From assembly GCA_964638835.1 (NCBI GenBank), contig CAZWZB010000002.1:19785-83784 (forward strand): 64,000 bases of DNA, in the 5' to 3' direction. The first letter of the stretch is position 1; each line of letters opens with the position of its first letter. The translations under genes and the position numbers were made by a program. Positions 6,722-63,808 of the stretch are shown in pieces. This DNA is from an uncultured Eubacteriales bacterium. Lineage in GTDB: Bacteria; Bacillota; Clostridia; Lachnospirales; CAZQDT01. A model generated the notes under the pieces. It saw only the letters and a list, made by a program, of their open reading frames with translations, did no database searches and was not told where the DNA came from.

Positions 6722-7248
6722 ATTTTATAAATACATTTTCAACCATATTAATACCAGTAATATTTGTAGCAATTCTTTTATATGGATACTCTAATAAAAT
6801 AAATGTATATGACACTTTTATTGATGGTGCTAAAGACGGAATAGGTGTTGTACTTAATATTTTACCTACACTTATAGGGCTTATGTTAGCAGTTGGAGTT
6901 TTAAGAGCTTCAGGAGTTTTAGATATATTAACTAAACTTATAGAACCAATAGCAAAATTAATTCATTTTCCATCTGAAGCAATACCAATAACTTTAATGA
7001 AACCAATTTCCTCATCTGCTGCTACAGGATTATTTATAGATATATTAAAAAAGTATGGAGGAGATGCATTTATAAGTAAATACATAGCTGTTATGCTTGG
7101 AAGTACAGAAACAATATTTTATACTATGTCTGTATACTTTACAAGTGTAAATATTATTAAAACAAGACATACTCTAAAAGGTGCATTAATATCAAATATA
7201 GCAGGAATATTTGTAGCATTATACATATCTTTATTATTTTTTTCTTAA
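6718..7248 (+). CDS. spmB: Spore maturation protein B
   Basis: 176-aa membrane protein translationally coupled to spmA. 'MKPISSSAATGL' is an SpmB-like block. Confidence 0.75.
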   Translation: MNFINTFSTILIPVIFVAILLYGYSNKINVYDTFIDGAKDGIGVVLNILPTLIGLMLAVGVLRASGVLDILTKLIEPIAKLIHFPSEAIPITLMKPISSSAATGLFIDILKKYGGDAFISKYIAVMLGSTETIFYTMSVYFTSVNIIKTRHTLKGALISNIAGIFVALYISLLFFS

Positions 7249-7266
7249 AACAAATTCTTTATAAAC

Positions 7267-7319
7267 GGAATATAAAATGAGTTCGATAAAATTAACTTAT
7301 CGAACTCATTTTATATTCC
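7267..7319 (+). terminator. Long hairpin terminator after spmB
   Basis: 23-bp stem GGAATATAAAATGAGTTCGATAA/TTATCGAACTCATTTTATATTCC followed by ATTTATATTTT. Confidence 0.65.
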
Positions 7320-7326
7320 ATTTATA

Positions 7327-7608
7327 TTTTGAAATATTTTAGAAATTCGTCAAAATATTTTATTTTATTTACAATTCTATCTTAACCCTGTAATTTTCAA
7401 GCTCTAAAAGCATTCATTACTTTCACACTATTTTTTAAGTATAAATGCTCTCATGTTTAATTATTTATTTATAATCTGCGAATCCATTGTAAAACCAATA
7501 AAAATAACATCAACGAAAAAATATTAAGAGGCAAAATCTCTTTACACTTTTGCAAAAGTGTAAAGAGATTTTAAATTTAATTTTATAAAATCTATCTTTA
7601 TAAACACT
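7327..7608. repeat. Dispersed ~280-nt intergenic repeat, copy A
   Basis: Aligns by eye with 17421-17697 and 56688-56963. Shared blocks: TTCGTCAA..TTTTATTTTATTT, AACCCTGTAATTTTCAAGCT, TTACACTATTTTTTAAGTATA, CTGCGAAT.CATTGTAAAA.CAATAAAAATAA, and the terminal hairpin AAAATCTCTTTACACTT..AAGTGTAAAGAGATTTT (7533-7572). Confidence 0.85.
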
Positions 7609-7741
7609 AAATAATATTTTAAATGAATTATGTTATTTTTTTTTATATGATTTTTAAATTTGGATATAGTAAATTGATTAGATTTGAGTTAAAATATATT
7701 AAAGAATATATAATAAATAATCTAAATTGGAGTGAATTTTA

Positions 7742-8209
7742 ATGACTGTATGGATAGATAATCAAACAGATAATTGTATTTTTGAAGATTATGAAAATCT
7801 TTTAAGGGAAATAGTTTTTTTATGTATTAAAGAAGAAAAATATTCTGAAAATATTGAAGTAAGTATATCTATAGTATATAATGAACAAATACAAGCTTTA
7901 AACAAAGAATTTAGAAATATAGATAAACCTACAGATGTACTTTCTTTTCCTATGATTGAATTTGAAAATAATAATTTTAATTTAAACATAGATACAAATG
8001 AAATTATATTAGGAGATATAATAATATCTATAGAAAAAGCTATTGAACAAGCTATTGAATTTGGGCACTCATTACAAAGAGAAATAGCATTTCTAACAGC
8101 TCATAGTATGTTTCATTTAATGGGATATGACCACCAAAATGATAAAGATGAATATATAATGAAACAAAAGCAAGAAAAAATCTTAACAAGTATTAATTTG
8201 ACTAGATAA
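7742..8209 (+). CDS. ybeY: rRNA maturation endoribonuclease YbeY
   Basis: 155 aa with the metal-binding motif 'HSMFHLMGYDH'. It sits in the ybeY-cdd-era synteny block. Confidence 0.9.
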   Translation: MTVWIDNQTDNCIFEDYENLLREIVFLCIKEEKYSENIEVSISIVYNEQIQALNKEFRNIDKPTDVLSFPMIEFENNNFNLNIDTNEIILGDIIISIEKAIEQAIEFGHSLQREIAFLTAHSMFHLMGYDHQNDKDEYIMKQKQEKILTSINLTR

Positions 8210-38092: not shown

Positions 38093-38500
38093 CTAGTTTT
38101 TTTTATTAAGAATATTATATAAAGAATTATTAGATAATTCTTTAATTAATATATTTTGTACTCTATTTAATTCTTTGTTGACTCTACATCTATTTGAATT
38201 ACAATTGTTTGGACATTTATAATTTATATCCATACATTCATTTATCCAAAGTTTATCTTCAACAGCTTTAATTATATCAAGCAAATAAGTTTTTTTTAAA
38301 TCGCAAGATAAACTATAACCACCATTCACACCTCTTGTAATTTCAACAATATTATTTTTGCTTAGTTTTTTTAAAATTTTGTAAGTAAATTGTGAAGGAA
38401 TATTCTCTATTTCACAAATTTGCTTTACATTTAATTTATTATGAATAAACAAAGCTCTTATCATACGTAACGCATAATCTGTTTCTCTATTAATTAACAA
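38093..38500 (-). CDS. Rrf2-family transcriptional regulator with a Cys-rich C-terminus
   Basis: TTG start. 'RETDYALRMIRAL' and the wHTH 'ITRGVNGGYSL'. Five Cys lie in 'NECMDINYKCPNNCNSNRCRV'. Confidence 0.85.
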   Translation of the reverse strand: MLINRETDYALRMIRALFIHNKLNVKQICEIENIPSQFTYKILKKLSKNNIVEITRGVNGGYSLSCDLKKTYLLDIIKAVEDKLWINECMDINYKCPNNCNSNRCRVNKELNRVQNILIKELSNNSLYNILNKKN

Positions 38501-38655
38501 TTACTCACAACTCCTAATTAAATATTGTTAAGTGTATTATAACAATACTAGATAAAAATTGTCAAGTATTCTTTATATTAATTTTTATATATTGCTAACA
38601 AAAGAATTAAAATAAAAATGATAAATATTTAAAAAAGTTAGTTTAAAAATAAAAG

Positions 38656-38687
38656 TTGGTTCGCACTTAAAATTAAGTGCGAACCAA
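38656..38687 (-). terminator. Terminator of the TPR-TPR-AAA operon (CGCACTT...AAGTGCG family)
   Basis: TTGGTTCGCACTT-aaaatt-AAGTGCGAACCAA, T-rich downstream on the minus strand. Confidence 0.7.
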
Positions 38688-38720: not shown

Positions 38721-39968
38721 TTATAAAAATTTTTTATTATCAAGTAAATATTTTTCTACATCATCATAATAACTAGCTTGATTAGAATATTTTACATATG
38801 TAGAAATAGTACGAAGCCATTCAATAGTAGTAGGATTAAAATTTTTTAATGTTTCCATTAATACTTTTTGATTTATTTTCAAATTTTCATTTCCTGTGTT
38901 TATAATTTCTTCTAAAACAATTTCTGTAGCATGTTCTACTACGTTTTCAATATCTGCTCCTGAAAAAAATTCACTTTCTTGTGCAAGTTTTTTATAATCA
39001 ATATTTTCACAAGGTCTATCTTCCATTTTTAATTTAAATATAATTTCTCTTGCTTTTACATCAGGTGGATGAACGAAGATTGAACGGTCAAATCTTCCCG
39101 GACGTCTTAATGCATTATCAACATCCCAAGGCATATTTGTTGCTCCAATAATAAGAATTTTATCTGTGTTAGAATCGATGCCTTCTATTTCTGTTAAAAG
39201 AGTATCCACAATTGAATGAACACTATTAACAGAAGTTTTACTACGATTATAGCCTAAAGTATCTATTTCATCAAAAAATAATATACAAGGTTTTTTTTGA
39301 CGAGCTGTATCAAAAATATTTTTTAGATTCTGTTCACTTTGTCCAAAATAAGGGTCAAGTATGTCCGATATTTTAACAGAACGAAAAAAAGCATTACATT
39401 CTCCAGCTGTAGCTTTAGCAATAAAAGTTTTACCACAACCCGGAGGACCAAAAAGTAAAAGACCTCCTCCTGCTTTTTTCTTAAATTTTAGAAATAATTC
39501 AGGATTAGTGAATGGTTTTATAATTTTCATAGAAATAATATTTTTTATATTTTCAAGTCCACCAACATCTTTAAAACTAATGATATCTTTTTCTTCTTTA
39601 TAAGAATTAGAACTAGAATTAAGTCCACCAGATAAAACTTTAAAATTACCTTTTTCTATTTGCACATCTTCTTTTACATCTTCAATATTATCAAATTGTT
39701 CATCTTCTTCTATATCTTCAATATCATCAAATTGTTCATCTTCGTTTATATCTTCATTAGTTTTTACTAGAAAAGAAGTAATTTCTGAAATTTCTTTTAA
39801 AATCACATTTGCCAAATCACTTTCAGCAAATGGAAGAGCTTTTGTTAAAGTTTCTAAAGATTTTTGGTGCATATTTAATTTTTTATATTCAGATGCTAAT
39901 AAAAATAATGTTTTGCTATCATTAGGCGAATGCATTAATATTCGTTCTAAAAGTGTAATTGCATCCAT
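38721..39968 (-). CDS. Classical-clade AAA ATPase with a short N-terminal TPR/MIT-like helical domain and an acidic repeat linker
   Basis: Walker A 'GPPGCGKTF', Walker B 'ILFFDEID', pore loop 'PYFGQSE', SRH 'ATNMPWDVDNALRRPGRFDR'. The N-terminal 70 aa are helical, followed by 'EDEQFDDIEDIEEDEQFDNIEDVKED'. AAGGAG RBS 13 nt after the upstream stop. Confidence 0.85.
   Translation of the reverse strand: MDAITLLERILMHSPNDSKTLFLLASEYKKLNMHQKSLETLTKALPFAESDLANVILKEISEITSFLVKTNEDINEDEQFDDIEDIEEDEQFDNIEDVKEDVQIEKGNFKVLSGGLNSSSNSYKEEKDIISFKDVGGLENIKNIISMKIIKPFTNPELFLKFKKKAGGGLLLFGPPGCGKTFIAKATAGECNAFFRSVKISDILDPYFGQSEQNLKNIFDTARQKKPCILFFDEIDTLGYNRSKTSVNSVHSIVDTLLTEIEGIDSNTDKILIIGATNMPWDVDNALRRPGRFDRSIFVHPPDVKAREIIFKLKMEDRPCENIDYKKLAQESEFFSGADIENVVEHATEIVLEEIINTGNENLKINQKVLMETLKNFNPTTIEWLRTISTYVKYSNQASYYDDVEKYLLDNKKFL
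39678..39743 (-). repeat. 36-nt tandem duplication encoding the acidic linker
   Basis: ATCTTCAATAT(T/C)ATCAAATTGTTCATCTTC occurs twice, spaced by TTCTAT. Confidence 0.85.
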
Positions 39969-39981
39969 ATTTTATACTCCT

Positions 39982-41580
39982 TTATTTTAATAATTTTAAT
40001 ATTTTTTGTAACCATGAAAGACTTTTAGTTTCTTTAAAAGAATTTTTTGCATAATTTATACATTCTTTTAATTCTTCATCATTAGGGTTTATTTTTAAAG
40101 CTTTATTAAAAAATTCAATAGCCATTTTATAATCATTATACTTTGTATATGTATGACCTAAAAAAGTATATACTTTTAATGTTTCAGCTTTATTGTTTTC
40201 AAATTGTAATACATTGTTTAATAAGTTCACTTCTTTATTTTTGTCATTTGATTTTACTGTATATGCATAACCTAAAGAAGTAGATACTTTTGATATTTCA
40301 ACTTCATTGTTTTGAAGTTTTAATATATTGTTTAATAAGTTCACTTCTTTATCTTTATCATTTGAAAATGTATGAATAACAAAATAAAATTCCCATAATG
40401 TATTAGTATTCTCTGGTTCAAGTTCTATGGCTTTATTAAGATTATCCATACCTTCTTCCTTATTGCCCAAAGCATATAAAGTTTTACCATATCCCGAAAT
40501 ACCTTCAATATCATTAGGTTTATTTTTAAGATAATTTTCATACACTACTTTAGCTTTTATATATTCTTTTCTATTAAAATGTATTTTAGCTATTAAATTT
40601 ATTATTCTACTAAAGTAAGAAAAAGATATATTTTCTCCTTTATTATTTACTATAATACCTATATGATCATTTATGGATAAATGGCTTACTAATTCATTAG
40701 CTATTTTTAAAGCTTTATCATAATAATCATCCAAATTAGAACCTAATATAAAATAACTATATGCTAAATAATATTTTGCATATATATCACTAGGTATTGT
40801 TTTTAATATTTCTAAACATATATTAATTATTTCATTATAATTACCATTAATTTGATGAAACATAATAAGTTCTATTTTTTCTTTTTTTTCTTTAGAATAA
40901 TTTATTGCTACAATTAATCTATCTATATGTTCGATTAATGACTTATTTGTAGGATTTATTTGAATTGCTTTTTTATAAAACTCTAGTGCATTTTCATAAT
41001 CTAAATATTTAGAATAAGTGTTTGCAAAATAGATATACATTTTAAATAAATGCTGTCCAAATCCTAACATTTTGTTAAGTAAACTTAATTCATATTCTTT
41101 ATTCATTGAAAATTCACTAAAACCTATGTAAACATCAGATAATATATAATAGTTATTTGGTTCGAGTTCCATAGCTTTTTCATATTGAATTTTAGCTTCT
41201 TTTTCTTGTCCCAATCCATATAACGCCTTACCATATCCAGAAATAGCTTTTGCATAATTTGGTTCTTTGGAAAGCAAGTCTTCATATATTAATTTTGATT
41301 TTAAATATTCGCCTTGTTCAAAATATATATTCCCCATTAAATCCATAATATTTTTACTAAATTTACTATTTATTAATTCATAACATAATTCAAGAGATTT
41401 ATTATTGTAATCTGTGTAATCTAAATTATAATAAAGAGATGCTAATAAATATTTAGCATTAATATCTTCTGGATATTCTGATAATATTTCAAAACAAATA
41501 TCTATTGCTTTTTGATAATTTTGTATTCCTTCATAATGTTGAGCAAGAGCATATTTTTTATTTAGTGCTTCTTCGTTCAT
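39982..41580 (-). CDS. All-TPR repeat protein, paralogue 1 (532 aa)
   Basis: Repeated 34-aa TPR-like units (e.g. 'GNIYFEQGEYLKSKLIYEDLLSKEPNYAKAISGYGKALYGLGQEKEAKIQYEKAMELEPNN'). No signal peptide or TM helix. Confidence 0.8.
   Translation of the reverse strand: MNEEALNKKYALAQHYEGIQNYQKAIDICFEILSEYPEDINAKYLLASLYYNLDYTDYNNKSLELCYELINSKFSKNIMDLMGNIYFEQGEYLKSKLIYEDLLSKEPNYAKAISGYGKALYGLGQEKEAKIQYEKAMELEPNNYYILSDVYIGFSEFSMNKEYELSLLNKMLGFGQHLFKMYIYFANTYSKYLDYENALEFYKKAIQINPTNKSLIEHIDRLIVAINYSKEKKEKIELIMFHQINGNYNEIINICLEILKTIPSDIYAKYYLAYSYFILGSNLDDYYDKALKIANELVSHLSINDHIGIIVNNKGENISFSYFSRIINLIAKIHFNRKEYIKAKVVYENYLKNKPNDIEGISGYGKTLYALGNKEEGMDNLNKAIELEPENTNTLWEFYFVIHTFSNDKDKEVNLLNNILKLQNNEVEISKVSTSLGYAYTVKSNDKNKEVNLLNNVLQFENNKAETLKVYTFLGHTYTKYNDYKMAIEFFNKALKINPNDEELKECINYAKNSFKETKSLSWLQKILKLLK
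40138..40365 (-). repeat. 2 x 114-nt tandem duplication within TPR paralogue 1
   Basis: Encodes 'SNDKDKEVNLLNNILKLQNNEVEISKVSTSLGYAYTVK' followed by 'SNDKNKEVNLLNNVLQFENNKAETLKVYTFLGHTYTKY'. Paralogue 2 has a single unit. Confidence 0.85.
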
Positions 41581-41653
41581 ACTAAACTATCCTTTCTTAA
41601 TATAATAAAGTAATACTATATTTAAACTCAAAAAACTATTAGTAAATGTAAAG

Positions 41654-43153
41654 TTATCTTAATAAGTTTAATATTTTCCTAAATATTGAAAAACCCTTAG
41701 GTTTATCAGAATAATTTTTCATATTACTTTTAGCATAATTCATACAATTTTTTAATTCTTCATTATCAGGGTTTATTTTTAAAGCTTCATTAAAAAATTC
41801 ACTAGCCATTTTATAATCCTTATATTTTGTATATGTATGACCTAAATAAGTATATACTCTACATATTTCAAATTTATTACTTTCAAGTTTTAATATAGTA
41901 TTCAATAATTCTATTTCCTTATCTTTATCATGTGAAAAGAAATAAATAGTAGAATAAAAATCCCATAATATAGTAATATTATCAGACTCAAGTTCTAGTG
42001 CTTTATTAAGATTAATTATTCCCTGCTCTTTATTACCTAAAGCATATAATACTCGACCATATCCTGCAATAGATTCAACATCATTAGGATGATTTTTGAG
42101 ATGATTTTCATAAAGTATTTTAGCCTCTGTATATTCTTCTTTATAAAAGTTTATTCTGCCTATTAAATTTATAATTCTATTGAAATAAAAAAATTCACTC
42201 TGTTCTACCCCATTAACTATTTCAATGCCTGTCTGAGTAAGTATTGAAGTATTATTTACTAAATCATTAGCTATTTCCATAGCTTTGTCATAATAATCAA
42301 AACCTAATGCAAAATAACTATACATTAAACAATATCTTATATGAATATCATCAGGTATTATTTCCAACATTTTTAAACATATATTAATTATTTCAGCATA
42401 ATTATTATTTTTTTGATAATATACAATAAGTTTTCTTTTTTCTTCTATCTCTTTAGAATGATTCATTTGTATAATTATTCTATCTGCAGCTTCAATTAAT
42501 GGTTTATATGTAGGATTTATTTGAATTGCTTTTTTATTAAATTTTAGTGCATTTTCATAATCTAAATATTTATAATAAGTATTTGCAAAATGCACATATA
42601 TTCTAAACAAATCTCCTCCAAATTCCAATATTCTACTAAGTAAATTTAGTTCATATTCTTTATCCATTGAAAACTTATGAAATCCTATATAAATATCAGA
42701 TAATATAAAATAACTATTGGGTTCAAGTTCCATAGCTTTTTCATATTGAATTTTAGCTTCTTTTTCTTGTCCTAATGCATGTAATGCTTTACCATATGAA
42801 GAAATAGCTTCAGCATAATTTGGTTCTTTAGAAAGCAAATCTTCATATGTTAATCTGGATTTTAAATATTCACCTTGTTCAAAATATATATTTCCCATTA
42901 AATTCATGATGTTTTTACTATATTTACTATTTATTAATTTACAACATAATTCAAGAGATTTATTATAATAATCTTTTGTAGTATCTGTATAATGTAAATC
43001 ATAATAAACAAATGCCAATACACATTTAGCATAGAGGTCTTCTGGATATTCTGATAATATTTCAAAACAAACATCCATTGCTTTTTGATAATTCTGTATA
43101 TTTTGATAATGCTCAGCAAGTTTATATTTTTTATTTAATATATCTTCTTCCAC
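41654..43153 (-). CDS. All-TPR repeat protein, paralogue 2 (499 aa)
   Basis: GTG start after an ATGAGGAA RBS. Collinear with paralogue 1, and well over half the residues are identical by eye. Confidence 0.8.
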   Translation of the reverse strand: MEEDILNKKYKLAEHYQNIQNYQKAMDVCFEILSEYPEDLYAKCVLAFVYYDLHYTDTTKDYYNKSLELCCKLINSKYSKNIMNLMGNIYFEQGEYLKSRLTYEDLLSKEPNYAEAISSYGKALHALGQEKEAKIQYEKAMELEPNSYFILSDIYIGFHKFSMDKEYELNLLSRILEFGGDLFRIYVHFANTYYKYLDYENALKFNKKAIQINPTYKPLIEAADRIIIQMNHSKEIEEKRKLIVYYQKNNNYAEIINICLKMLEIIPDDIHIRYCLMYSYFALGFDYYDKAMEIANDLVNNTSILTQTGIEIVNGVEQSEFFYFNRIINLIGRINFYKEEYTEAKILYENHLKNHPNDVESIAGYGRVLYALGNKEQGIINLNKALELESDNITILWDFYSTIYFFSHDKDKEIELLNTILKLESNKFEICRVYTYLGHTYTKYKDYKMASEFFNEALKINPDNEELKNCMNYAKSNMKNYSDKPKGFSIFRKILNLLR

Positions 43154-43344
43154 AATAATCGTTCCTCATTTATAAATTTATTTTAATTATATCATATTTT
43201 AATTAAAACTACTATACTAAACGATATCTTAGATAATTAAAAGTGAAAATATTATATACTTAAAAAATTGGAGGGTTTATAAAAAGATAGATTTTGTTAT
43301 AAAATTAATGGTTATATATTAAATCAGATAAAAAATTTAAAATT

Positions 43345-43384
43345 AAAGTTGTGTCGCACTTCGTACGAAGTGCGACACAACTTT
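43345..43384. other. 19-bp perfect hairpin (GTTGTGTCGCACT family) upstream of the TPR operon
   Basis: AAAGTTGTGTCGCACTTCG-ta-CGAAGTGCGACACAACTTT. The same 13-bp stem core recurs at 51008-51047. Confidence 0.8.
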
Positions 43385-43571
43385 AAATTAAAAAATACTA
43401 ATAAAAAATATTTTTTTACTATTATAAAAACTCTCACATTTCAAAATAATTTCTTAATATATGTTTAATTTTAATTAATCACTCTCAAAAAGTTTATTTT
43501 ACTATTGTAATATAGAAAATAATGTTATAAAATATATAAGGTTATATTATAAATTGTAAAGGAGAGTTTTT

Positions 43572-44640: not shown

Positions 44641-44668
44641 AAAAAGGCTTAGATAAGCCTTTTTTTTA
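44641..44668. terminator. Bidirectional terminator between convergent genes
   Basis: AAAAAGGCTTA-gat-AAGCCTTTTTTTT. Confidence 0.75.
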
Positions 44669-47602
44669 TTCATAAATTATGTTGTATAGTCGATTAAGTC
44701 TTACTAAAGCTAATTGTCCTGTAATTTTTTTATCAGCATTATAAACATTATTTCCATCTTTCTCTATTACATTGTTATCTAAGTATACTTCTATAATGTC
44801 ATTAGGATTATCATATTTTTTTACTAATTGTGGGTCTGCTATAAAAATAGTATTGTACATGATTATACCAGCTTCTAGTTCAGTTAAATTACCATTTGGA
44901 TTGAATCTACCATTTGGTGCATCCATAAGCCCTAATTTAACCATAAGAAATTGGTCAAAATCATCATTACCGCAATCTGTAACAATACCTTCTTCATAAT
45001 CAGGATTTTTAGAACCTTCTTCCCAAACATCATAATAAAGACCTGCCATAAGTGTTGCAAATCTGCCTCTAGTAATAGCAGAATTTATATCATTAAGAGG
45101 AGCAACGAAACCATTTGAAAGAGCTTCTTTTATTTCTTCTTTTGACCAATCATTTGGCAGTGCTGACTCATCATTAATAATTCTAAAATTATAATCTTTA
45201 GATGAACTTATACCTTCTGAATTAGTAGCTTTTACAGTAAGTGTATGTTCTCCTGGTGCAACTTCGTATGGCCAAATCCATAACATAGAACCTGTCATAA
45301 ATTCACGACCATCTAACAACCATTGTACATCATCATAAATCCAACCATCTTGAATATCATATATATCTATATCTAAAAATATTTCATCTGTTATTTTATA
45401 ATCAATTATTTCATCTTGTATGTAAAGTATTTCAGGTGCTTTGTAGTTAACTTGAATAGTAGGACTATCTATTTCAGAAGTAAGTATACCATCCGTTGCA
45501 TAAAGATAAAAATAACCATCTTTTGTTCCTGGATATTCTGAAAAATTAACTTCTATAGAAGTAGATGTAATATTTGTTGCAACATTTATAAAATCATCTT
45601 CATTTGGACAATACCATAATTCATAATAAATAGTATCGTCATCAGCATCTACACCTTTCCAAGATATAGTTGCTATATCATCTAATTTTTGATTTTCATT
45701 AAGGTTTATAAATTCAATTTGAGGTGTATTTTTAGAAACATTTTCGCTATATATTTCTTTATCACCTTTTTTAATTACAATCTTAGATGTATTTTGTGGA
45801 TAACGTGTAGTAATATTAACAGGTGATTTATCAATCTTTCTAGGAGGATTTGAATTAGCTATAAAGTTCATATCAAAGAAAGTTTTTGAAAGTTGATTTC
45901 CATTACTATCAAGCATAGAAACTTCATATTCACCCTTGTTAGTCACTGTTAAATTGGTTTTATCTGTTTCATAAATATACCAAGGTGTTTTTGTAAATAC
46001 TCCAGCTTCTGTTATAACACCTGTAATATCTATAGCTGTAATATCTGTTTGAGTTTGTTTACCTTGATATTCGTCTTCATATAAAGAAACATAATACATA
46101 AGTTCTTCGCAACTTTCACATTCAATAACTACATTTTCTTCTATAATGTCATTTTCTTCATCACAGTAGTCGCAAATAAAAGGTTCTAATCCATATATTT
46201 CGGTTAGTTCCTCACATTCAAAACATTCACCATAAATAGTAGGTTCATATATTTCTTCATAACAATAAATACAAGTACCTATACTTTCATCTGAATCATC
46301 TGAAGCATTTGAATTATTATTTTGATTATTTGCTTTAATTTGAGTTGAAGCATTTGGGTCAACATTTACACCAGTAAAAGCTTTAAAAAGCTGATTCCAT
46401 ATATCTGATGTAGTCCAAAAATCCCATGAATTTGATAAACCTGAACCCATATAACTAGTAACATTAGTAAGATTTTTTTGTCCTAAAACATAAAAAGGTC
46501 TTTGATTATCATTAATAACAGAGCCTGAACCATCTAATCCAACAGAATTACCACCTACTACAGCTTCTTTGCTTCCTTCAACTTTTCCACCATTCCACCC
46601 ACTGCCTTTCATTTTGTAAGGTGGTTCATTAGTATTAGGATTCATAGTACCACCAGGATATTCATCTCCAACTTTATAACAGTGTGCTACTTCATGTGCT
46701 ACTGTAGCTTGCATATCACCATCTGATTCAGTAACAATATTTGCTGGTAAACCATATGTATATCCTGCAAGACTTCCATCAAGTGGATTATTTCTTACAA
46801 AACCTATTATTAATTCATAATCTTTAGATTTTGTTTGTAAATTGGCAAGAGCTTCCCAAACATTATACATTCCATCTTCACTATTGAGGTCATACATATC
46901 ATCAGATAAATCTAATTCAGGAGCTAAAATATATTCTAAATTGTTTTTACCTAAAGGATATGTTGCATAAAGAAATTCTGAACTCTTTTTATAATCTCCG
47001 CTACAACGAATAACTTTACCTGAATAATTTGCAATAACTGGAACAGCTAACACTTTAATATTTTTAGATGGATAAAAATTTGTTTGGCGTGTTGCGGTAC
47101 CAAGATTACTTTTAAATTCAAATGAATAACCACCCATTTGCCAATTTTTAACGTCAGCCATATTACGTGGATAAAAATATGCATAATTTTGATTTCCACT
47201 ATTTGAAGGCAATAAATCTGTAATAATATTACCATCTTTTGAAATAGTTAAAGTCATACTTCCATCTTGAGGAATATTAACTTTATTTTTAAACGTAACA
47301 AATACTGCTGTTTCTTTTCCTGCAACAAAGTTTTCGATAGGATAATAAGAACCATCATTAGAATTTTTACCATAACTTAATACTTGATTTACTTCAATAG
47401 CCGTTATATCTGGATTATCTGTATTAAAGTTTAATGGTAATACTTTAAAAGAAGAATTTTGGTCTGAAGATATAAATTCAGAGCCTTCTACTGGAGATAT
47501 TGCTACTATTTCATCCTCATCATCAATTGAACATGAAAGTAGTGCAAAGCCTAAAATACAAATAAGTGCAAAACTTATAGATATTTTAAAAAATTTTTTC
47601 AT
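44666..47602 (-). CDS. Large lipoprotein with a zincin (HExxH) peptidase domain, a 4xCxxC insert, Ig-like repeats and a degenerate SLH-like C-terminus
   Basis: I set the start at the ATG at 47602 (AGAGGTG RBS). 'MKKFFKISISFALICILGFALLSCS' is a lipobox. 'ATVAHEVAHCYKVGDEY' lies near 46683-46700. The Cys cluster is at 46100-46290. The C-terminus reads 'WSKEEIKEALSNGFVAP...ITRGRFATLMAGL'. Confidence 0.7.
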   Translation of the reverse strand: MKKFFKISISFALICILGFALLSCSIDDEDEIVAISPVEGSEFISSDQNSSFKVLPLNFNTDNPDITAIEVNQVLSYGKNSNDGSYYPIENFVAGKETAVFVTFKNKVNIPQDGSMTLTISKDGNIITDLLPSNSGNQNYAYFYPRNMADVKNWQMGGYSFEFKSNLGTATRQTNFYPSKNIKVLAVPVIANYSGKVIRCSGDYKKSSEFLYATYPLGKNNLEYILAPELDLSDDMYDLNSEDGMYNVWEALANLQTKSKDYELIIGFVRNNPLDGSLAGYTYGLPANIVTESDGDMQATVAHEVAHCYKVGDEYPGGTMNPNTNEPPYKMKGSGWNGGKVEGSKEAVVGGNSVGLDGSGSVINDNQRPFYVLGQKNLTNVTSYMGSGLSNSWDFWTTSDIWNQLFKAFTGVNVDPNASTQIKANNQNNNSNASDDSDESIGTCIYCYEEIYEPTIYGECFECEELTEIYGLEPFICDYCDEENDIIEENVVIECESCEELMYYVSLYEDEYQGKQTQTDITAIDITGVITEAGVFTKTPWYIYETDKTNLTVTNKGEYEVSMLDSNGNQLSKTFFDMNFIANSNPPRKIDKSPVNITTRYPQNTSKIVIKKGDKEIYSENVSKNTPQIEFINLNENQKLDDIATISWKGVDADDDTIYYELWYCPNEDDFINVATNITSTSIEVNFSEYPGTKDGYFYLYATDGILTSEIDSPTIQVNYKAPEILYIQDEIIDYKITDEIFLDIDIYDIQDGWIYDDVQWLLDGREFMTGSMLWIWPYEVAPGEHTLTVKATNSEGISSSKDYNFRIINDESALPNDWSKEEIKEALSNGFVAPLNDINSAITRGRFATLMAGLYYDVWEEGSKNPDYEEGIVTDCGNDDFDQFLMVKLGLMDAPNGRFNPNGNLTELEAGIIMYNTIFIADPQLVKKYDNPNDIIEVYLDNNVIEKDGNNVYNADKKITGQLALVRLNRLYNIIYE

Positions 47603-47843
47603 GACATCACCTCTACACATATAATTAAGCACATTTCACACATAATAAATTTACTATGTGTGAAAATCTAAAATGATTAAAACAATTTGCTAATTATATT
47701 TCGTAAAATTGAAAATGATATAAAAGTATACAAATACGGCTTGTATATTTATTATAAAATTCAATTTTGCACCTTATAAATTTAGGCATCAAACTTTTTA
47801 AGGTTGGTAATTATATTTGTTTACTAAGTAATTTATTTATCAC

Positions 47844-59020: not shown

Positions 59021-62000
59021 ATGTATAAGAAATTGTTAAGTATTTTTATTACAATTGTTATGTGTTTGCCTAATTTACCTACAGTTAGCGTATTAGCAAA
59101 TACAGAACAAAGTTGGACCAATGAAGGAACTTATAATACTGAATGGTTCAATGGTAATGGTACTAGTACTGAACCGTATATAATCAGTAATGCTTCTGAT
59201 TTGGCAGGATTATCTGTATTAGTAAACAAAGGAAATGATTTTTCTGGCAAATACATAAGATTAGAAGATGATATAGACTTATCAGGTAAGCAGTGGATGC
59301 CTATAGGTAATTCTAATAACAACTTCAGAGGAATTTTTGATGGAAACAACCACATAATAAAAAATCTCACTATAGGAAGTGAAATAGAAAAAAGTGACAT
59401 TGATTGTGCAGGATTATTTGGTTCTGTAGATAATAGTGAACTTTTAAATATTGGTCTTATAGATTTAGAAATTTTTATTAATGCTGGAAATGTAGGAGGA
59501 CTTGTTGGTGATAATAGTGGAGATATTAAAAACTCATATGCTATAAACACAATAACAGGAACTACAACAGGAGGGCTTGTTGGAAATAATAGTGGTAACA
59601 TATTAAATTCATATGCTATAACTAATATTTCAGGAATTATAACAGGAGGACTTGTTGGAAATAATAGTGGTAATATATTAAATTCATATGCTATAACTAA
59701 TATTTCAGGAACTACTGCTGGTGGATTTGTTGGAAACAATAGTGGTAATATTAAAAACTCATATGCTACTACGAATACTACAAACAACAATGCAAGTGGA
59801 TTTATTAGTAATAATAGTGGTAATATTAAAAATTCATATTGGGATACGGATAAAATATCTACAGGTATATCTACAGGAAATGATAGTGGATTAACTGGAT
59901 TAAATACTAATCAGATGAAAGGTATTGATACAGATAAAACTGATTGGGTTAATATTACTATAGACGAACTTGATAAAGGAGATATTTCTCTTGTTGAAGC
60001 TTTAAATTTAGGATTAGAATCAAAATATTTAGATTGGATGAATGATACTCAAAATACACAACAAGGTTATCCAAAACATTCTAATTTATCTAAAGTGTCA
60101 ATTGAAAGCATTAGCTTAAATGTAACAGAAACACAATTAAGTGTTGGTGAAACTCTAGACTTAGAAGCTATCATCTTACCTTACAATGCTACTAATAAAT
60201 TAATTAACTGGAGTGTAGATACTGAAGGTGTAGTGGATATTGTTTATAACAATTCAAATGATACATATGCAAAAATATCTGCAATACAAGAAGGCACTGC
60301 TATTGTTACAGCAACCACACAAGATAACAATTTAACTGCTTCTTGCAAAATTACAGTTAATTCTGAATTGCAATCTTCTTTTACAGTAACTTATGATTCT
60401 AATGGTGGTATTGGTGATATTCAAAGTGTTCAAGTAAAAGAAAATGCAAAAATTACAATAAAACAAAACTCCTTTGAAAAAGATGGTTATAAATTTATAG
60501 GATGGTTATATGATGGTAAAGTTTATCAACCAAATGAAACTATAGCTGTAAATTCAGATATAACTTTCATTGCTCAATGGGGAATACCAGTAACAAGTAT
60601 AACTTTAGATATAAGAAAAATTCAATTAAATGTTGGTGAAATCTTAAATTTAGAAGCAATTATATCACCTATAAATGCTACTAATACTAATGTTTTATGG
60701 AATGTAAAAGATTCAAGTATTGTAAACATAGTATCTAATAAATTACAAACAACTGTTACTGGAATTTCAGAAGGCACTACTACTATTACAGCTAAAACAG
60801 AAGATGGTAATTTTATAGCTTCTTGTCAAATAACAGTTGTGAAAAATAGTGGTCCTAAAGATAGATATTCTGTTACTTATGAAGGTGATGGCGGTACAGG
60901 AAGTAACTTCCCGGTACAATATTTTAAAACAGGAACCAAAATTAAATTAAAAACAAATCACTTTACAAAACCGGGATATAAATTTGTAGGATGGTTATAT
61001 AATGGCAAAATTTATCAACCTAAAGATGTTTTCACTGTAGAATCTGATACAATTTTTGTGGCTAAGTGGGAAGAACTTACTACTCCAGAAAAACCGGTTG
61101 AAACAAAAGTTAAAGGCGTAAATTTAAGTATAATAAAAGTTGTTTTAGGTATAGGAGAAGAATTAGACTTAGATGCGATTATTTCACCTAATACTGCTGT
61201 TAATAAAAATGTAGTATGGTCTAATAGTAATTCAAGTGTAGTAGATATTGTATATGATACAGTTTCTGATTCTGTATATGGTTCTGTATATAACGCTGTA
61301 TATTCAAAAATAACAGGTCTTTCTGTAGGTACTGCTAAAATTACAGTTACTACTGAAGATGGTGGATTTACTGCTTCTTGTGATGTAGAAGTTGTAAATG
61401 ATTCAAATGGTAATGGAAATGGCAATAGATTTGTAGTATCATATGATGCTAATGGTGGTATTGGAACTGCTCCAAATACTAAACCTTTGAGAGCTGGTAC
61501 TATAATTACAATAAGACCTAATCCATTTATAAAATATGGTTATTATTTTGATAAGTGGTTATACAATAATCAATCTTATCTACCTTTACAACCGTTTGAA
61601 ATAACATCAGATGCTACTTTTACTGCTCAATGGAGTGAAGTTCCACCTGCAAGAGTAGAAGATGTAGAACTAGATTTAGTTGAAATTAGATTAGATGTTA
61701 ATGAAATGATAGAATTAGAAGCAACTATTTATCCTTATTATGCTGCTAATAAAAATGTTTCTTGGTCTTCTAGTAATGATGGTATAGTAAATTTAGTTCC
61801 TAGTAAACAAGGAGTAATAATAACTGGAATGAAAGAAGGTACTACTACAATTACAGTTACAACTGAAGATGGTGGATTTATTGCTTCTTGTGATGTAGTA
61901 GTTGAAAATACACAAGCTGAAGATAAATTTACAGTATCATATGATGGTAATGGTGGTATTGGAACTGTTCCAAATGTTCAAACTTTAAAGAGCGGAACTG

Positions 62001-63808
62001 AAATTACAGTAAAACCTAATCCATTTACAAAAGATGGTTATGTATTTGCAGGATGGTTATATGATAATAAAATTTATCAACCTAACCAAACTATAGTGGT
62101 ACAAAAAGATATAACATTCATTGCTCAATGGCGTGGAGAATTTGATACACCAGTAACAGATGTAAATTTAAGTGTGGCAGAGATTAAATTAAAAGTGGGC
62201 GAAAGTGCAAACTTAGAAGCTATTATTTCTCCTGATAATGCTACAAATAAAACTGTATTCTGGAGTGTAGATGATTCAAACGTTGCAGGTATTGTTTATA
62301 AGGATAATGTATATGTAACTATATCTGCTATTTCAGAAGGTATTACAACAATAATGGTTACAACTGAAGATGGATACCTTACAGCTTCTTGTAACATTAT
62401 AGTTGATAATAATAATGAAGATGATAACTTTACAGTAACTTATGATGCTAATGGTGGTATTGGAGATGCTATTGAAATTGAAAAATTTAAAGATGGAACT
62501 GAAATTACAGTAAAATCAAATCCATTTAGAAAATATGGTTATAGATTTTCAGGATGGTTATATGATGGTAAAATTTATCAACCTAACCAAACTGTAATTA
62601 TAGATAAAAATATAACTTTTGTTGCTCAATGGAAAGTTATTGATGATGAAGGTTCTAATAATGGAAATAATTCAAATTCTAATAATAATGAATCTAAAAA
62701 AGATAAAACTTTATATATTACAATAGGTAGTATAACAATTCCTTATACTATATCTGGTGTTAATATAAAAATTGAAATTAATGATGAACTTTTAGAAAAA
62801 TTATTAGAAAATGCAAAAGAAACTAATACTATTTTAATTGATTTATCAAATATAGATGGTATTAAAAATATTAAGCATATCAGTTTTAAAACTAAAGGTA
62901 AATTATTTAAAGATAATAAAGTAATAGTAAAAGGTATTAGTACTGTAACAGTAGGTTCTAGTATGTTTAAAAATTTAAATTTAGATTCAACTGATATTAT
63001 AGAAATGTCAATAGCAAAGGGAAGTATTTCTGTAGATTTTAAAGTTAATGAAAAAGATATAACAAGTAATAAGCATATAGATTCATTGAAAGTTAACTAT
63101 GAAGTTAATGATATAACAGATAATACTGTAATAGTTAAGCTAGAAGATAATAAACAAACTATAGTACCATTTAGTATAGCTAGTGAAGATGAAATGATAT
63201 TTAAAACAGAATTATTAGGAAGATTTGAAGCAGTGGAAAGAGCATTTAATTTTTCTGATATATCATCACATTGGGGAGAAAAGTATATCAATTTCATGGC
63301 AGCTAGAAACATAGTACATGGAAAAGAAAATAATGTTTTCAAACCAGATGATAATATAACAAGAGCAGAATTTGTAACATTACTTTTTGGGTTCTATGGA
63401 ATAGATGACAAAGAACTTGATAAGTATAAATATACAAGTTTTAAAGACGTTAAAGAAGATGATTGGTTTGCACCATATATAAATTTTGCAGTGCAAAACA
63501 AAATAGCAACTGGAACGGGAGATAATTATTTCTCACCAAATGAACAAATTACAAGGGAACAAATGGCAACAATGCTTTTAAACTTTTCACAAAACAATAG
63601 CTTTGTTATAACAACAAATGGAACTAATAAATCATTTGCAGATAGCAATAATATAAGTTATTGGGCAACAAACGCAGTAAATACTATGCAAAATGCAAAT
63701 ATAATAAGTGGAAGAGCAGATAATATATTTGAACCAAAATCATTGGCAACAAGAGCAGAAGCGTGTTCTATTGTTCAAAGATTTGTAGAAAATATAGTAT
63801 CAAATTAA
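59021..63808 (+). CDS. 1595-aa cell-surface protein: signal peptide, GLUG repeats, 5 x (Big_2 + InlB-B/Listeria-Bacteroides repeat) modules, 3 x SLH
   Basis: Signal peptide 'LSIFITIVMCLPNLPTVSVLA'. 'GGLVGNNSGNI.NSYA' occurs five times. 'L.VGE.L.LEAII.P.NATN..V.W' Big_2 units alternate with 'Y..NGG.G....(K/R).G..I.....F.K.GY.F.GWLY....YQP....V....TF.AQW'. Three canonical SLH modules lie at the C-terminus. Confidence 0.85.
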   Translation: MYKKLLSIFITIVMCLPNLPTVSVLANTEQSWTNEGTYNTEWFNGNGTSTEPYIISNASDLAGLSVLVNKGNDFSGKYIRLEDDIDLSGKQWMPIGNSNNNFRGIFDGNNHIIKNLTIGSEIEKSDIDCAGLFGSVDNSELLNIGLIDLEIFINAGNVGGLVGDNSGDIKNSYAINTITGTTTGGLVGNNSGNILNSYAITNISGIITGGLVGNNSGNILNSYAITNISGTTAGGFVGNNSGNIKNSYATTNTTNNNASGFISNNSGNIKNSYWDTDKISTGISTGNDSGLTGLNTNQMKGIDTDKTDWVNITIDELDKGDISLVEALNLGLESKYLDWMNDTQNTQQGYPKHSNLSKVSIESISLNVTETQLSVGETLDLEAIILPYNATNKLINWSVDTEGVVDIVYNNSNDTYAKISAIQEGTAIVTATTQDNNLTASCKITVNSELQSSFTVTYDSNGGIGDIQSVQVKENAKITIKQNSFEKDGYKFIGWLYDGKVYQPNETIAVNSDITFIAQWGIPVTSITLDIRKIQLNVGEILNLEAIISPINATNTNVLWNVKDSSIVNIVSNKLQTTVTGISEGTTTITAKTEDGNFIASCQITVVKNSGPKDRYSVTYEGDGGTGSNFPVQYFKTGTKIKLKTNHFTKPGYKFVGWLYNGKIYQPKDVFTVESDTIFVAKWEELTTPEKPVETKVKGVNLSIIKVVLGIGEELDLDAIISPNTAVNKNVVWSNSNSSVVDIVYDTVSDSVYGSVYNAVYSKITGLSVGTAKITVTTEDGGFTASCDVEVVNDSNGNGNGNRFVVSYDANGGIGTAPNTKPLRAGTIITIRPNPFIKYGYYFDKWLYNNQSYLPLQPFEITSDATFTAQWSEVPPARVEDVELDLVEIRLDVNEMIELEATIYPYYAANKNVSWSSSNDGIVNLVPSKQGVIITGMKEGTTTITVTTEDGGFIASCDVVVENTQAEDKFTVSYDGNGGIGTVPNVQTLKSGTEITVKPNPFTKDGYVFAGWLYDNKIYQPNQTIVVQKDITFIAQWRGEFDTPVTDVNLSVAEIKLKVGESANLEAIISPDNATNKTVFWSVDDSNVAGIVYKDNVYVTISAISEGITTIMVTTEDGYLTASCNIIVDNNNEDDNFTVTYDANGGIGDAIEIEKFKDGTEITVKSNPFRKYGYRFSGWLYDGKIYQPNQTVIIDKNITFVAQWKVIDDEGSNNGNNSNSNNNESKKDKTLYITIGSITIPYTISGVNIKIEINDELLEKLLENAKETNTILIDLSNIDGIKNIKHISFKTKGKLFKDNKVIVKGISTVTVGSSMFKNLNLDSTDIIEMSIAKGSISVDFKVNEKDITSNKHIDSLKVNYEVNDITDNTVIVKLEDNKQTIVPFSIASEDEMIFKTELLGRFEAVERAFNFSDISSHWGEKYINFMAARNIVHGKENNVFKPDDNITRAEFVTLLFGFYGIDDKELDKYKYTSFKDVKEDDWFAPYINFAVQNKIATGTGDNYFSPNEQITREQMATMLLNFSQNNSFVITTNGTNKSFADSNNISYWATNAVNTMQNANIISGRADNIFEPKSLATRAEACSIVQRFVENIVSN
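59495..59845 (+). repeat. 75-nt tandem coding repeats (GLUG units), about 5 copies
   Basis: Two central units are nearly identical at the DNA level (59566-59715). Confidence 0.85.
60095..62636 (+). repeat. Five tandem ~510-nt coding modules (Big_2 + B-repeat)
   Basis: Periodic recurrence of the 'ATNxxVxW ... TTEDG.F.ASC...V' and 'GWLYDGK.YQPN' blocks. Confidence 0.8.

Follow-up and report, generated by a model that had tools for sequence, protein, structure and literature searches.

What is a single-ring ATPase of the classic AAA clade, whose unfoldases other than FtsH are regarded mainly as archaeal and eukaryotic machines, doing in a bacterial operon beside two large proteins built only of tetratricopeptide repeats (TPR)? 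The question is raised by a 64,000-nt stretch of about 25% GC DNA from an uncultured Eubacteriales bacterium (contig CAZWZB010000002.1; hereafter 'the window', in which all coordinates are positions); the nearest named relatives are Clostridia. An initial annotation had described two TPR paralogues and an AAA protein of the classic clade with a single AAA module as one operon-like unit, had given the AAA protein a small helical N-domain followed by an acidic, flexible linker, and had noted that no effector, protease or transmembrane (TM) part is encoded with them. This description holds, and the coordinates of the three minus-strand genes, which are separated by gaps of 73 nt (T1-T2) and 13 nt (T2-AAA), are confirmed:

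41654-43153, minus strand: T1 gene, 499 aa, GTG start (open reading frame list)
39982-41580, minus strand: T2 gene, 532 aa (open reading frame list)
38721-39968, minus strand: AAA gene, 415 aa, single-module classic-clade AAA+ ATPase

Judged against its relatives, this operon is best read as a rare soluble, duplicated derivative of a widespread bacterial AAA/TPR-membrane module.

Homologues of the ATPase number in the thousands: 7,994 of 8,000 scored candidates matched at E<=0.001. Most of the best 120 listed align over their full length at about 50% identity, and they come from Clostridia, Bacillus, Brevibacillus, Paenibacillus and Sporomusa. Members of the family share the N-domain, a variable acidic linker, the motif LRVIxGG before the AAA module, and a C-terminal tail; a 53-residue profile of the tail alone recovered at least 474 clusters at 50% identity (a lower bound) from 1.84 billion representatives. 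In a cross-phylum sample, the AAA core and tail recur at 40-49% identity in Actinomycetota, Planctomycetota, Verrucomicrobiota, Bacteroidota, Cyanobacteria and Proteobacteria, and a same-strand TPR gene adjoins the AAA gene in at least ~41 of 84 independent sampled loci, representing seven or more phyla. The initial annotation had staked its reading on co-conservation of these genes and on an ATPase outside the SpoVK/CbbX type, and on that count the reading survives, because TPR partner genes adjoin the AAA family across phyla; moreover, no SpoVK or CbbX model was among the NCBIfam matches to the ATPase at E<=0.01. Its further view that the layout is foreign to the common bacterial AAA+ machines has to be given up, since the family is widespread in bacteria and the dyad had already been described (PMC11237479).

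That computational note of 2024 presents a "Vps4-like AAA + TPR-6TM" dyad (e.g., Oter_1429/ACB74714.1 of Opitutus), annotates it as MIT+Vps4-AAA followed by TPR+TM(s), and reads it as a 'membrane-proximal complex'; it contains no experiments and mentions neither Firmicutes nor the split or soluble forms. The window system is recognizably the same, in that its ATPase is 40-49% identical, over residues ~126-408 including the tail, to AAA proteins of Verrucomicrobiota, Cyanobacteria, Bacteroidota and Planctomycetota whose genes precede TPR-multiTM genes, and in that a homologous TPR partner is adjacent on the same strand. It differs in that the window partners have no TM domain, are internally doubled and tandemly duplicated, and come first in the gene order, and in that the N-domain tests as TPR in the window protein but is MIT in the paper's annotation.

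Across phyla, the TPR partner is mostly encoded directly downstream of the ATPase, often with a 4-bp overlap, and has 2-7 TM helices, the first at residue ~215-285 (open reading frame calling in high-GC loci was crude); the cytoplasmic TPR domain of the canonical partner is ~230-260 aa long. In the fused form, which occurs in many phyla, one gene following that of the ATPase encodes both the TPR domain and 4-7 TM helices. The canonical order in Firmicutes is instead small TM protein, TPR-2TM protein, AAA, in otherwise unrelated contexts: the small membrane protein (150-190 aa, 3-4 TM helices) is encoded upstream of the TPR-2TM gene and usually overlaps it, and the TPR-2TM protein (~290 aa, a ~230-aa TPR domain followed by a TM hairpin at the C-terminus) is encoded directly upstream of the ATPase. 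All Firmicute-type loci with readable flanks and otherwise unrelated surroundings have this trio, which amounts to 12 independent loci (L002, L006, L007, L008, L010, L012, L013, L096, L097, L100, L101 and the decayed L091). The split form also occurs in Proteobacteria, where a Leucothrix locus (L036, 1623-3853) encodes the ATPase, then a 136-aa 3-TM protein, then a 310-aa TPR-2TM protein. Because the same three parts appear there in another order, the small membrane protein and the TPR-2TM protein together look like the split counterpart of the fused 4-7-TM partner. Neither the membrane domains nor the small TM proteins matched any Pfam family.

Several individual loci deserve mention in their own right. 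Two further proteobacterial loci (L032 and L034) have the order of L036, i.e., AAA, small 3-TM protein, TPR-2TM. A metagenomic Firmicute (L091, 6800-9020) carries a decayed module: its TPR-TM gene is interrupted by an in-frame stop, its small-TM gene is disrupted, and its AAA gene lacks the N-domain. This reflects either that the module is dispensable there or errors of assembly. In two Streptomyces loci (L074, L083; AAA match 7001-7850), proteins of ~1,470 aa end in this AAA core plus tail, and in L083 a 506-aa TPR-4TM protein is encoded 3 nt further on. One Clostridium (L002-L004, 400-2400) has polymorphic-toxin/immunity cassettes (WHH/Colicin-DNase, Ntox15, Imm48, GAD-like/Tdi1) together with an IS110 transposase immediately upstream of its canonical module, a neighbourhood seen at no other locus.

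The two large window proteins are homologues of the TPR domain of the canonical membrane partner: each half of T1 and T2 matches that domain in BLAST at E 1e-9 to 1e-14, and a partner-TPR hidden Markov model (HMM) matches the two proteins at 4e-33 and 5e-36. TPR families are their sole matches in Pfam and NCBIfam, and a Kyte-Doolittle scan found no TM segment in T1, T2 or the ATPase, in keeping with the earlier claim that the two large proteins consist of TPRs without TM helices. In each, a ~230-aa TPR module has been duplicated internally (residues ~1-235 and ~236-499 in T1, with the same two-module build in T2), and the two halves are 30-34% identical (E~1e-33). Because T1 and T2, at 61% identity, show a dS of 0.37 and a dN/dS of 0.53, their duplication appears to be fairly recent and the constraint on them only moderate. 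Alignment with T2 also backs the GTG start of T1. The following features distinguish the two proteins or mark their ends:

40201-40314, minus strand: 38-aa insertion in T2 (residues 423-460), absent from T1
41657-41698, minus strand: C-terminal amphipathic helix of T1, KGFSIFRKILNLLR, hydrophobic moment at the 99.6th percentile within the protein
39985-40026, minus strand: C-terminal amphipathic helix of T2, KSLSWLQKILKLLK, hydrophobic moment at the 96.9th percentile

The insertion is a tandem duplication of the adjoining TPR-like repeat unit (19 of 38 residues identical), so that the partner has grown at three levels, one within the other: the repeat unit, the 230-aa module and the whole gene. 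The KGFSIFRKILNLLR and KSLSWLQKILKLLK helices sit where canonical partners enter the membrane, at the start of the TM hairpin, and the C-terminal ending L-x3-L-x2-L-[KR] is found in T1 and T2 only, among the 52 open reading frames of the window.

Soluble partners occur in 3 of ~15 Firmicute-type loci: the window, L090 and L093. The ATPase of L090 is 58% identical to that of the window and has one 508-aa TM-less TPR gene upstream; that of L093 is 57% identical, and the TPR protein encoded upstream ends without a TM segment and matches the L090 partner (E 4.5e-16). Because these nearest AAA relatives share the soluble state, the window belongs to a small clade with a soluble, doubled partner. 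The window ATPase stays well conserved, at 56-58% identity to its closest relatives, while the partners have diverged to 25-30% identity; a homologue search with T2 returned only generic TPR matches apart from its paralogue T1, leaving the L090 partner unrecovered, and a metagenome scan for very close relatives yielded 9 loci, none above 60% identity. No homologue of the small TM protein occurs anywhere in the 64-kb window. This lineage appears to have lost its TM parts and its small membrane gene, doubled the TPR module within the protein, and then duplicated the gene in tandem. The AAA/TPR partnership, as far as sequence comparison can tell, persists across phyla even after loss of the membrane anchor.

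The ATPase is a classic-clade AAA protein with intact catalytic motifs, and both its AAA domain (PF00004, residues 170-299, 136.5 bits; cutoff 21.2) and its lid (AAA_lid_3, residues 322-359, 32.4 bits; cutoff 27.2) score above the Pfam gathering thresholds. The AAA motifs and the acidic tandem-repeat linker quoted in the initial annotation were all found in the protein. From the N-terminus, the main features are these (pLDDT being the confidence score of the models described below):

39753-39968, minus strand: N-domain, a four-helix TPR unit (residues ~1-72; pLDDT 92.9)
39588-39752, minus strand: disordered acidic linker (residues ~71-127; pLDDT <50)
39666-39743, minus strand: 12-aa x2 acidic repeat in the linker (residues 76-101)
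39624-39644, minus strand: linker motif FKVLSGG (family consensus LRVIxGG), conserved in the family just before the AAA module
39069-39587, minus strand: AAA large subdomain (residues ~128-300)
39426-39449, minus strand: Walker A, GPPGCGKT (residues 174-181)
39336-39353, minus strand: pore loop 1, PYFGQS (residues 206-211)
39261-39284, minus strand: Walker B, ILFFDEID (residues 229-236)
39084-39143, minus strand: second region of homology (SRH), ATNMPWDVDNALRRPGRFDR, with Arg289/Arg292 (residues 276-295)
38841-39068, minus strand: AAA lid (small) subdomain (residues ~301-376)
38724-38840, minus strand: family-specific C-terminal tail of two helices (residues 377-415)

Across 23 aligned family members, K180/T181, D233/E234, Y207/G209 and R289/R292 are invariant, and the enzyme appears to be of the active, pore-threading type rather than degenerate. 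The tail, with the consensus KPSTIEWLRTIxNYVKYANQSGLYDDVExYL, is kept from Firmicutes to Cyanobacteria and Bacteroidota. The protein was modelled with AlphaFold2 on the basis of 23 homologues, and the model has a confident four-helix N-domain (3-72), a disordered linker, a normal AAA fold, and extra C-terminal helices at 380-394 and 399-410. The N-domain had been called 'TPR/MIT-like', and only the first half of that label survives: the top 50 fold matches of the N-domain model (pLDDT ~93) are all TPR proteins (TMq ~0.8, root-mean-square deviation 1.0-1.7 A), and its profile matched consensus TPR, Cdc27, MamA and PEX5 in the PDB, with no MIT chain in the top 60. Neither the window protein nor any of five relatives drawn from other phyla matched the MIT family (PF04212), even at E<=1. 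The N-domain amounts to about one TPR repeat with flanking helices here, and to 2-3 repeats in relatives outside Firmicutes.

To which of the known AAA families, if any, does this protein belong? NCBIfam returned 23 matches at E<=0.01, led by Cdc48 (TIGR01243, 201 bits against a cutoff of 802.65, matching D2 only) and followed by FtsH (TIGR01241, 190 bits against 600), PAN (187 bits), CdvC (NF041006, 165.9 bits against 650), IteA (NF042959, 119.6 bits against 510) and EccA (TIGR03922, 36.1 bits against 466.65), all far below their cutoffs. A PDB sequence search was also led by p97/Cdc48 D2 (183 bits for p97 D2 alone), and the Foldseek matches to p97-D2, FtsH, Vps4 and Rix7 fall within one range (E~1e-19 to 1e-21) that does not separate them. 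Because every subfamily score falls below its cutoff and the fold search does not discriminate, the ATPase is a classic-clade member of a family of its own. The specific Vps4 or CDC48 membership suggested by the initial annotation is not sustained, since the family scores are so low and neither MIT nor Vps4_C is present; 'Vps4-like' describes the layout and does not demonstrate membership.

The D2 ring of Cdc48/p97/VAT nevertheless has the highest sequence and fold similarity, with the Walker A context GPPGCGKT..AKA.A.EC and the RPGRFD of the SRH common to both, but those proteins have two AAA rings and a double-psi-barrel N-domain, in contrast to the single ring and TPR N-domain here, and the window protein was rejected as a member on these grounds. 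The SRH segment N-M-P-W-D-V-D presumably resembles that of Vps4/katanin, as RPGRFD and the Walker A context resemble Cdc48-D2, and we take such likenesses as a lead rather than a test. FtsH membership was rejected on the lack of a TM helix and of Peptidase_M41, in addition to the score. By analogy, FtsH and Msp1/ATAD1 are also classic AAA proteins at the cytoplasmic membrane face, the anchor of the canonical module being supplied in trans by the TPR-TM partner; unlike them, the window ATPase has no TM helix or M41 domain, and the window variant has no membrane anchor of any kind. EccA, a member of the CbbX clade from type VII secretion, combines an N-terminal TPR domain with an AAA module, and both IetA/IteA and EccA resemble the window protein in that each is a stand-alone bacterial AAA ATPase working with a partner dedicated to it.

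On balance, and with moderate confidence, we read the operon as a membrane-detached version of the widespread module, i.e., a single-ring classic AAA+ unfoldase or disassemblase with its cognate TPR partner. Less firmly, we favour an adaptor or scaffold role for the partner, which the ATPase would act on or act through. The ATPase hexamer would thread polypeptide through its pore with ATP, and its own N-terminal TPR unit, held on the acidic tether, would form a recognition platform with the TPR solenoids of the partner; this platform may select clients, or may itself be assembled or disassembled by the ATPase. Contacts might be made by the conserved LRVIxGG motif in the linker, by the basic, conserved tail of the ATPase or by the C-terminal helix of the partner. 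Canonical systems would work at the inner (cytoplasmic) face of the membrane, and T1 and T2 would be soluble, at most peripherally attached via their conserved C-terminal amphipathic helices. There is a slim chance of a more specific arrangement, in which T1 and T2, far from being passive adaptors, form a self-assembling soluble or peripheral TPR scaffold that the TPR unit of the ATPase recognizes via the C-terminal helix or LRVIxGG, and that the ATPase actively disassembles.

A number of points weigh against reading the operon as a detached unfoldase and its cognate partner. Physical contact between the AAA and TPR proteins is something that we infer, and our literature search found no experimental work on the dyad or on any member of the family. 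Since the flanking genes are not conserved, they do not allow a substrate or process to be named. Since T1 and T2 have a dN/dS of 0.53 and the L091 copy is decayed, the partners appear to be only moderately constrained and the module dispensable in some lineages, which would also suit an accessory or conflict role. With its membrane part lost, the window system may differ in its task from the canonical one, or T1 and T2 may themselves be en route to loss. There are also weaknesses of method: the HMM used to detect TPR partners was built from four Firmicute sequences, which makes the ~41 of 84 a lower bound, the counts from the cross-phylum genome scan are samples and not censuses, and TM calls throughout come from a simple hydropathy scan.

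The rival that survives best, although we judge it unlikely, is ESCRT-like remodelling along the lines suggested by the MIT+Vps4-AAA and TPR+TM(s) annotation of PMC11237479: a bacterial Vps4 acquired from archaea, with the TPR(-TM) protein in place of ESCRT-III/Snf7 as the disassembled membrane polymer, and a polymer of T1/T2 docking via a MIM1-like helix. Like Vps4/CdvC working with ESCRT-III, the window protein has a small helical domain and a flexible linker in front of a single classic AAA module, carries extra C-terminal helices and presumably threads its substrate, and the Vps4 structures 6bmf and 5uie are among its good fold matches. The L-x3-L-x2-L-[KR] ending confined to T1 and T2 also resembles the MIM1 pattern. 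Against this, Vps4/CdvC membership was rejected, with no MIT domain, Vps4_C (PF09336; E<=1) or beta-domain detected in the window protein and no MIT or Vps4_C in the five relatives, and an N-domain that tests as TPR only; the CdvC model scores below Cdc48-D2, FtsH and PAN; the fold search does not separate Vps4 from p97-D2, FtsH and Rix7; no Snf7 or PspA gene lies near the locus; and the soluble partner of L090, from the closest relative, lacks the C-terminal pattern. Nor, to our knowledge, do TPR solenoids form ESCRT-III-like polymers.

Slightly more doubtful is an anti-phage or conflict system in which the TPR protein senses an invader, the AAA protein transduces or resets the signal, and the TM part of canonical systems is a membrane-damaging effector, the window copy being effector-less or retooled. 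The patchy distribution of the family, its unrelated flanks, the decay of L091, and the repeated duplication and moderate constraint of the TPR partners would all suit such a role, as would the location of some loci beside polymorphic-toxin cassettes, WYL regulators or an integrase. PADLOC does match the ATPase, but only through the generic AAA core (IetA at 123 bits, and TRIP13); IetA/IteA membership, as in anti-phage IetAS, was rejected on its score and on the lack of an IetS protease in the operon, and the TPR partners and small TM proteins have no meaningful PADLOC match. Among 132 flanking proteins of 15 low-GC loci there is no recurrent family (at most four share a Pfam family), and PADLOC matches are sparse and generic, i.e., WYL regulators, a cysteine desulfurase and a radical-SAM protein. 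Searches against phages gave no matches, and those against plasmids gave AAA-core matches only, on large non-mobilizable Streptomyces replicons. These flank, phage and plasmid results argue against a defence island or mobile element, and the window locus lies amid metabolic genes and encodes no effector. Sporulation and defence, both entertained in the initial annotation, gain no support from the PADLOC, flanking-protein, phage, plasmid or neighbour-gene results. The last rival, a SpoVK/CbbX/EccA-type dedicated chaperone of sporulation or secretion with TPR genes adjacent by chance, can appeal to the TPR-AAA pairing of EccA and to the generic COG name 'SpoVK/Ycf46/Vps4 family' that JGI gives some family members, but it is effectively refuted, as no SpoVK or CbbX model appears among the NCBIfam matches and EccA scores far below its cutoff, the best matches are the classic-clade Cdc48-D2, FtsH and PAN, the family is present in non-sporulating phyla, and TPR adjacency is conserved across loci and not coincidental.

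The gene layout suggests that T1, T2 and AAA are co-transcribed as one operon. A Shine-Dalgarno sequence precedes each of the three genes (GAGGA, AAAGGA and AAGGAG), and a terminator scan of the region found no convincing terminator between them. There are four terminator-like sites in the region versus 0.7 expected, and the lone internal one (39806-39832) has only three GC pairs and lies within the AAA coding sequence. The signals upstream of T1 are:

43186-43194, minus strand: extended -10 element TGATATAAT, a consensus match ~33 nt 5' of the T1 start codon
43163-43167, minus strand: T1 ribosome-binding site, GAGGA, read from the sequence

The TGATATAAT element is likely the promoter of the operon, and a search of the window against Rfam matched no leader or riboswitch upstream of it. 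Two hairpins flank the operon, as the initial annotation had reported, and both proved very stable:

43343-43386, minus strand: upstream hairpin, a 20-bp perfect stem then a T-run; -32.7 kcal/mol, z -12.4
38656-38687, minus strand: downstream hairpin, a 14-bp GC-rich stem then CTTTTATTTTT; -21.2 kcal/mol, z -8.4

The downstream hairpin has the form of a textbook intrinsic terminator and probably ends the operon; the upstream one is located between the divergent galM and the operon promoter, ~190 nt 5' of the T1 start. Both are homologous copies of one element, TTG..TCGCACTT[loop]AAGTGCGA..CAACTTT.ATTTT.AAA, and this TCGCACTT...AAGTGCGA element has two copies in 64 kb (the flanking pair only) versus none expected. 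The pair could be a terminator duplicated by insertion of a cassette, or members of a genome-wide family of terminators resembling repetitive extragenic palindromes (REP-like). The upstream hairpin resembles a minus-strand terminator without a gene to terminate, and ~150 nt upstream of it is a promoter-like site, TTTACA-18-TATATT (43560-43531, minus strand); a short transcript or attenuating leader at 43387-43560 on the minus strand is possible, and this region had no Rfam match. Public Logan contigs of the same species break at the upstream palindrome, and L092 begins ~200 nt before galM. A search for a cassette-free allele or for other strains via the GalM and CooS neighbours returned only short contigs, broken at the hairpin.

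The surroundings are those of an ordinary chromosome: P-type ATPases, NADP-dependent glutamate dehydrogenase, an Rrf2-CooS CO-dehydrogenase operon, GalM, and haem/sirohaem genes. An Rrf2-family regulator (38093-38565) heads the downstream CooS (anaerobic CO dehydrogenase) operon, which is transcribed independently of the AAA operon because the Rrf2 gene has a perfect sigma-70 promoter of its own (TTGACA-18-TATAAT with TG, 38565-38536). Further away, 44666-47632 on the minus strand encodes a 988-aa predicted lipoprotein with a lipobox (LLSC), an HExxH zinc-peptidase motif (HEVAH) and Cys-rich segments, which no NCBIfam model matched at E<=1e-10, and 59021-63808 encodes a 1,595-aa protein, probably a large surface protein, whose sole NCBIfam match is the Listeria/Bacteroides-type repeat (TIGR02543).

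Single-ring classic AAA proteins with a dedicated TPR partner are thus widespread in bacteria. Beyond PMC11237479, the present comparison extends the known range of the pair to Firmicutes, Actinomycetota and Proteobacteria, finds the membrane part in both fused and split forms, and identifies a small clade, including the window, with a fully soluble partner. Because all three of its proteins are soluble, the window variant would be the easiest biochemical entry to the family, i.e., to complex formation, substrate trapping and structure. If the partner serves as an adaptor only, the result would be a useful but ordinary family annotation; if it is a substrate or a scaffold, the family would represent a new bacterial remodelling cycle. 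Should T1 and T2 indeed form a scaffold that the ATPase disassembles, this would be a bacterial cycle functionally analogous to that of ESCRT-III and Vps4 but made from unrelated TPR parts, and the window variant would be a naturally membrane-free, tractable version of a membrane-embedded machine found across bacterial phyla.

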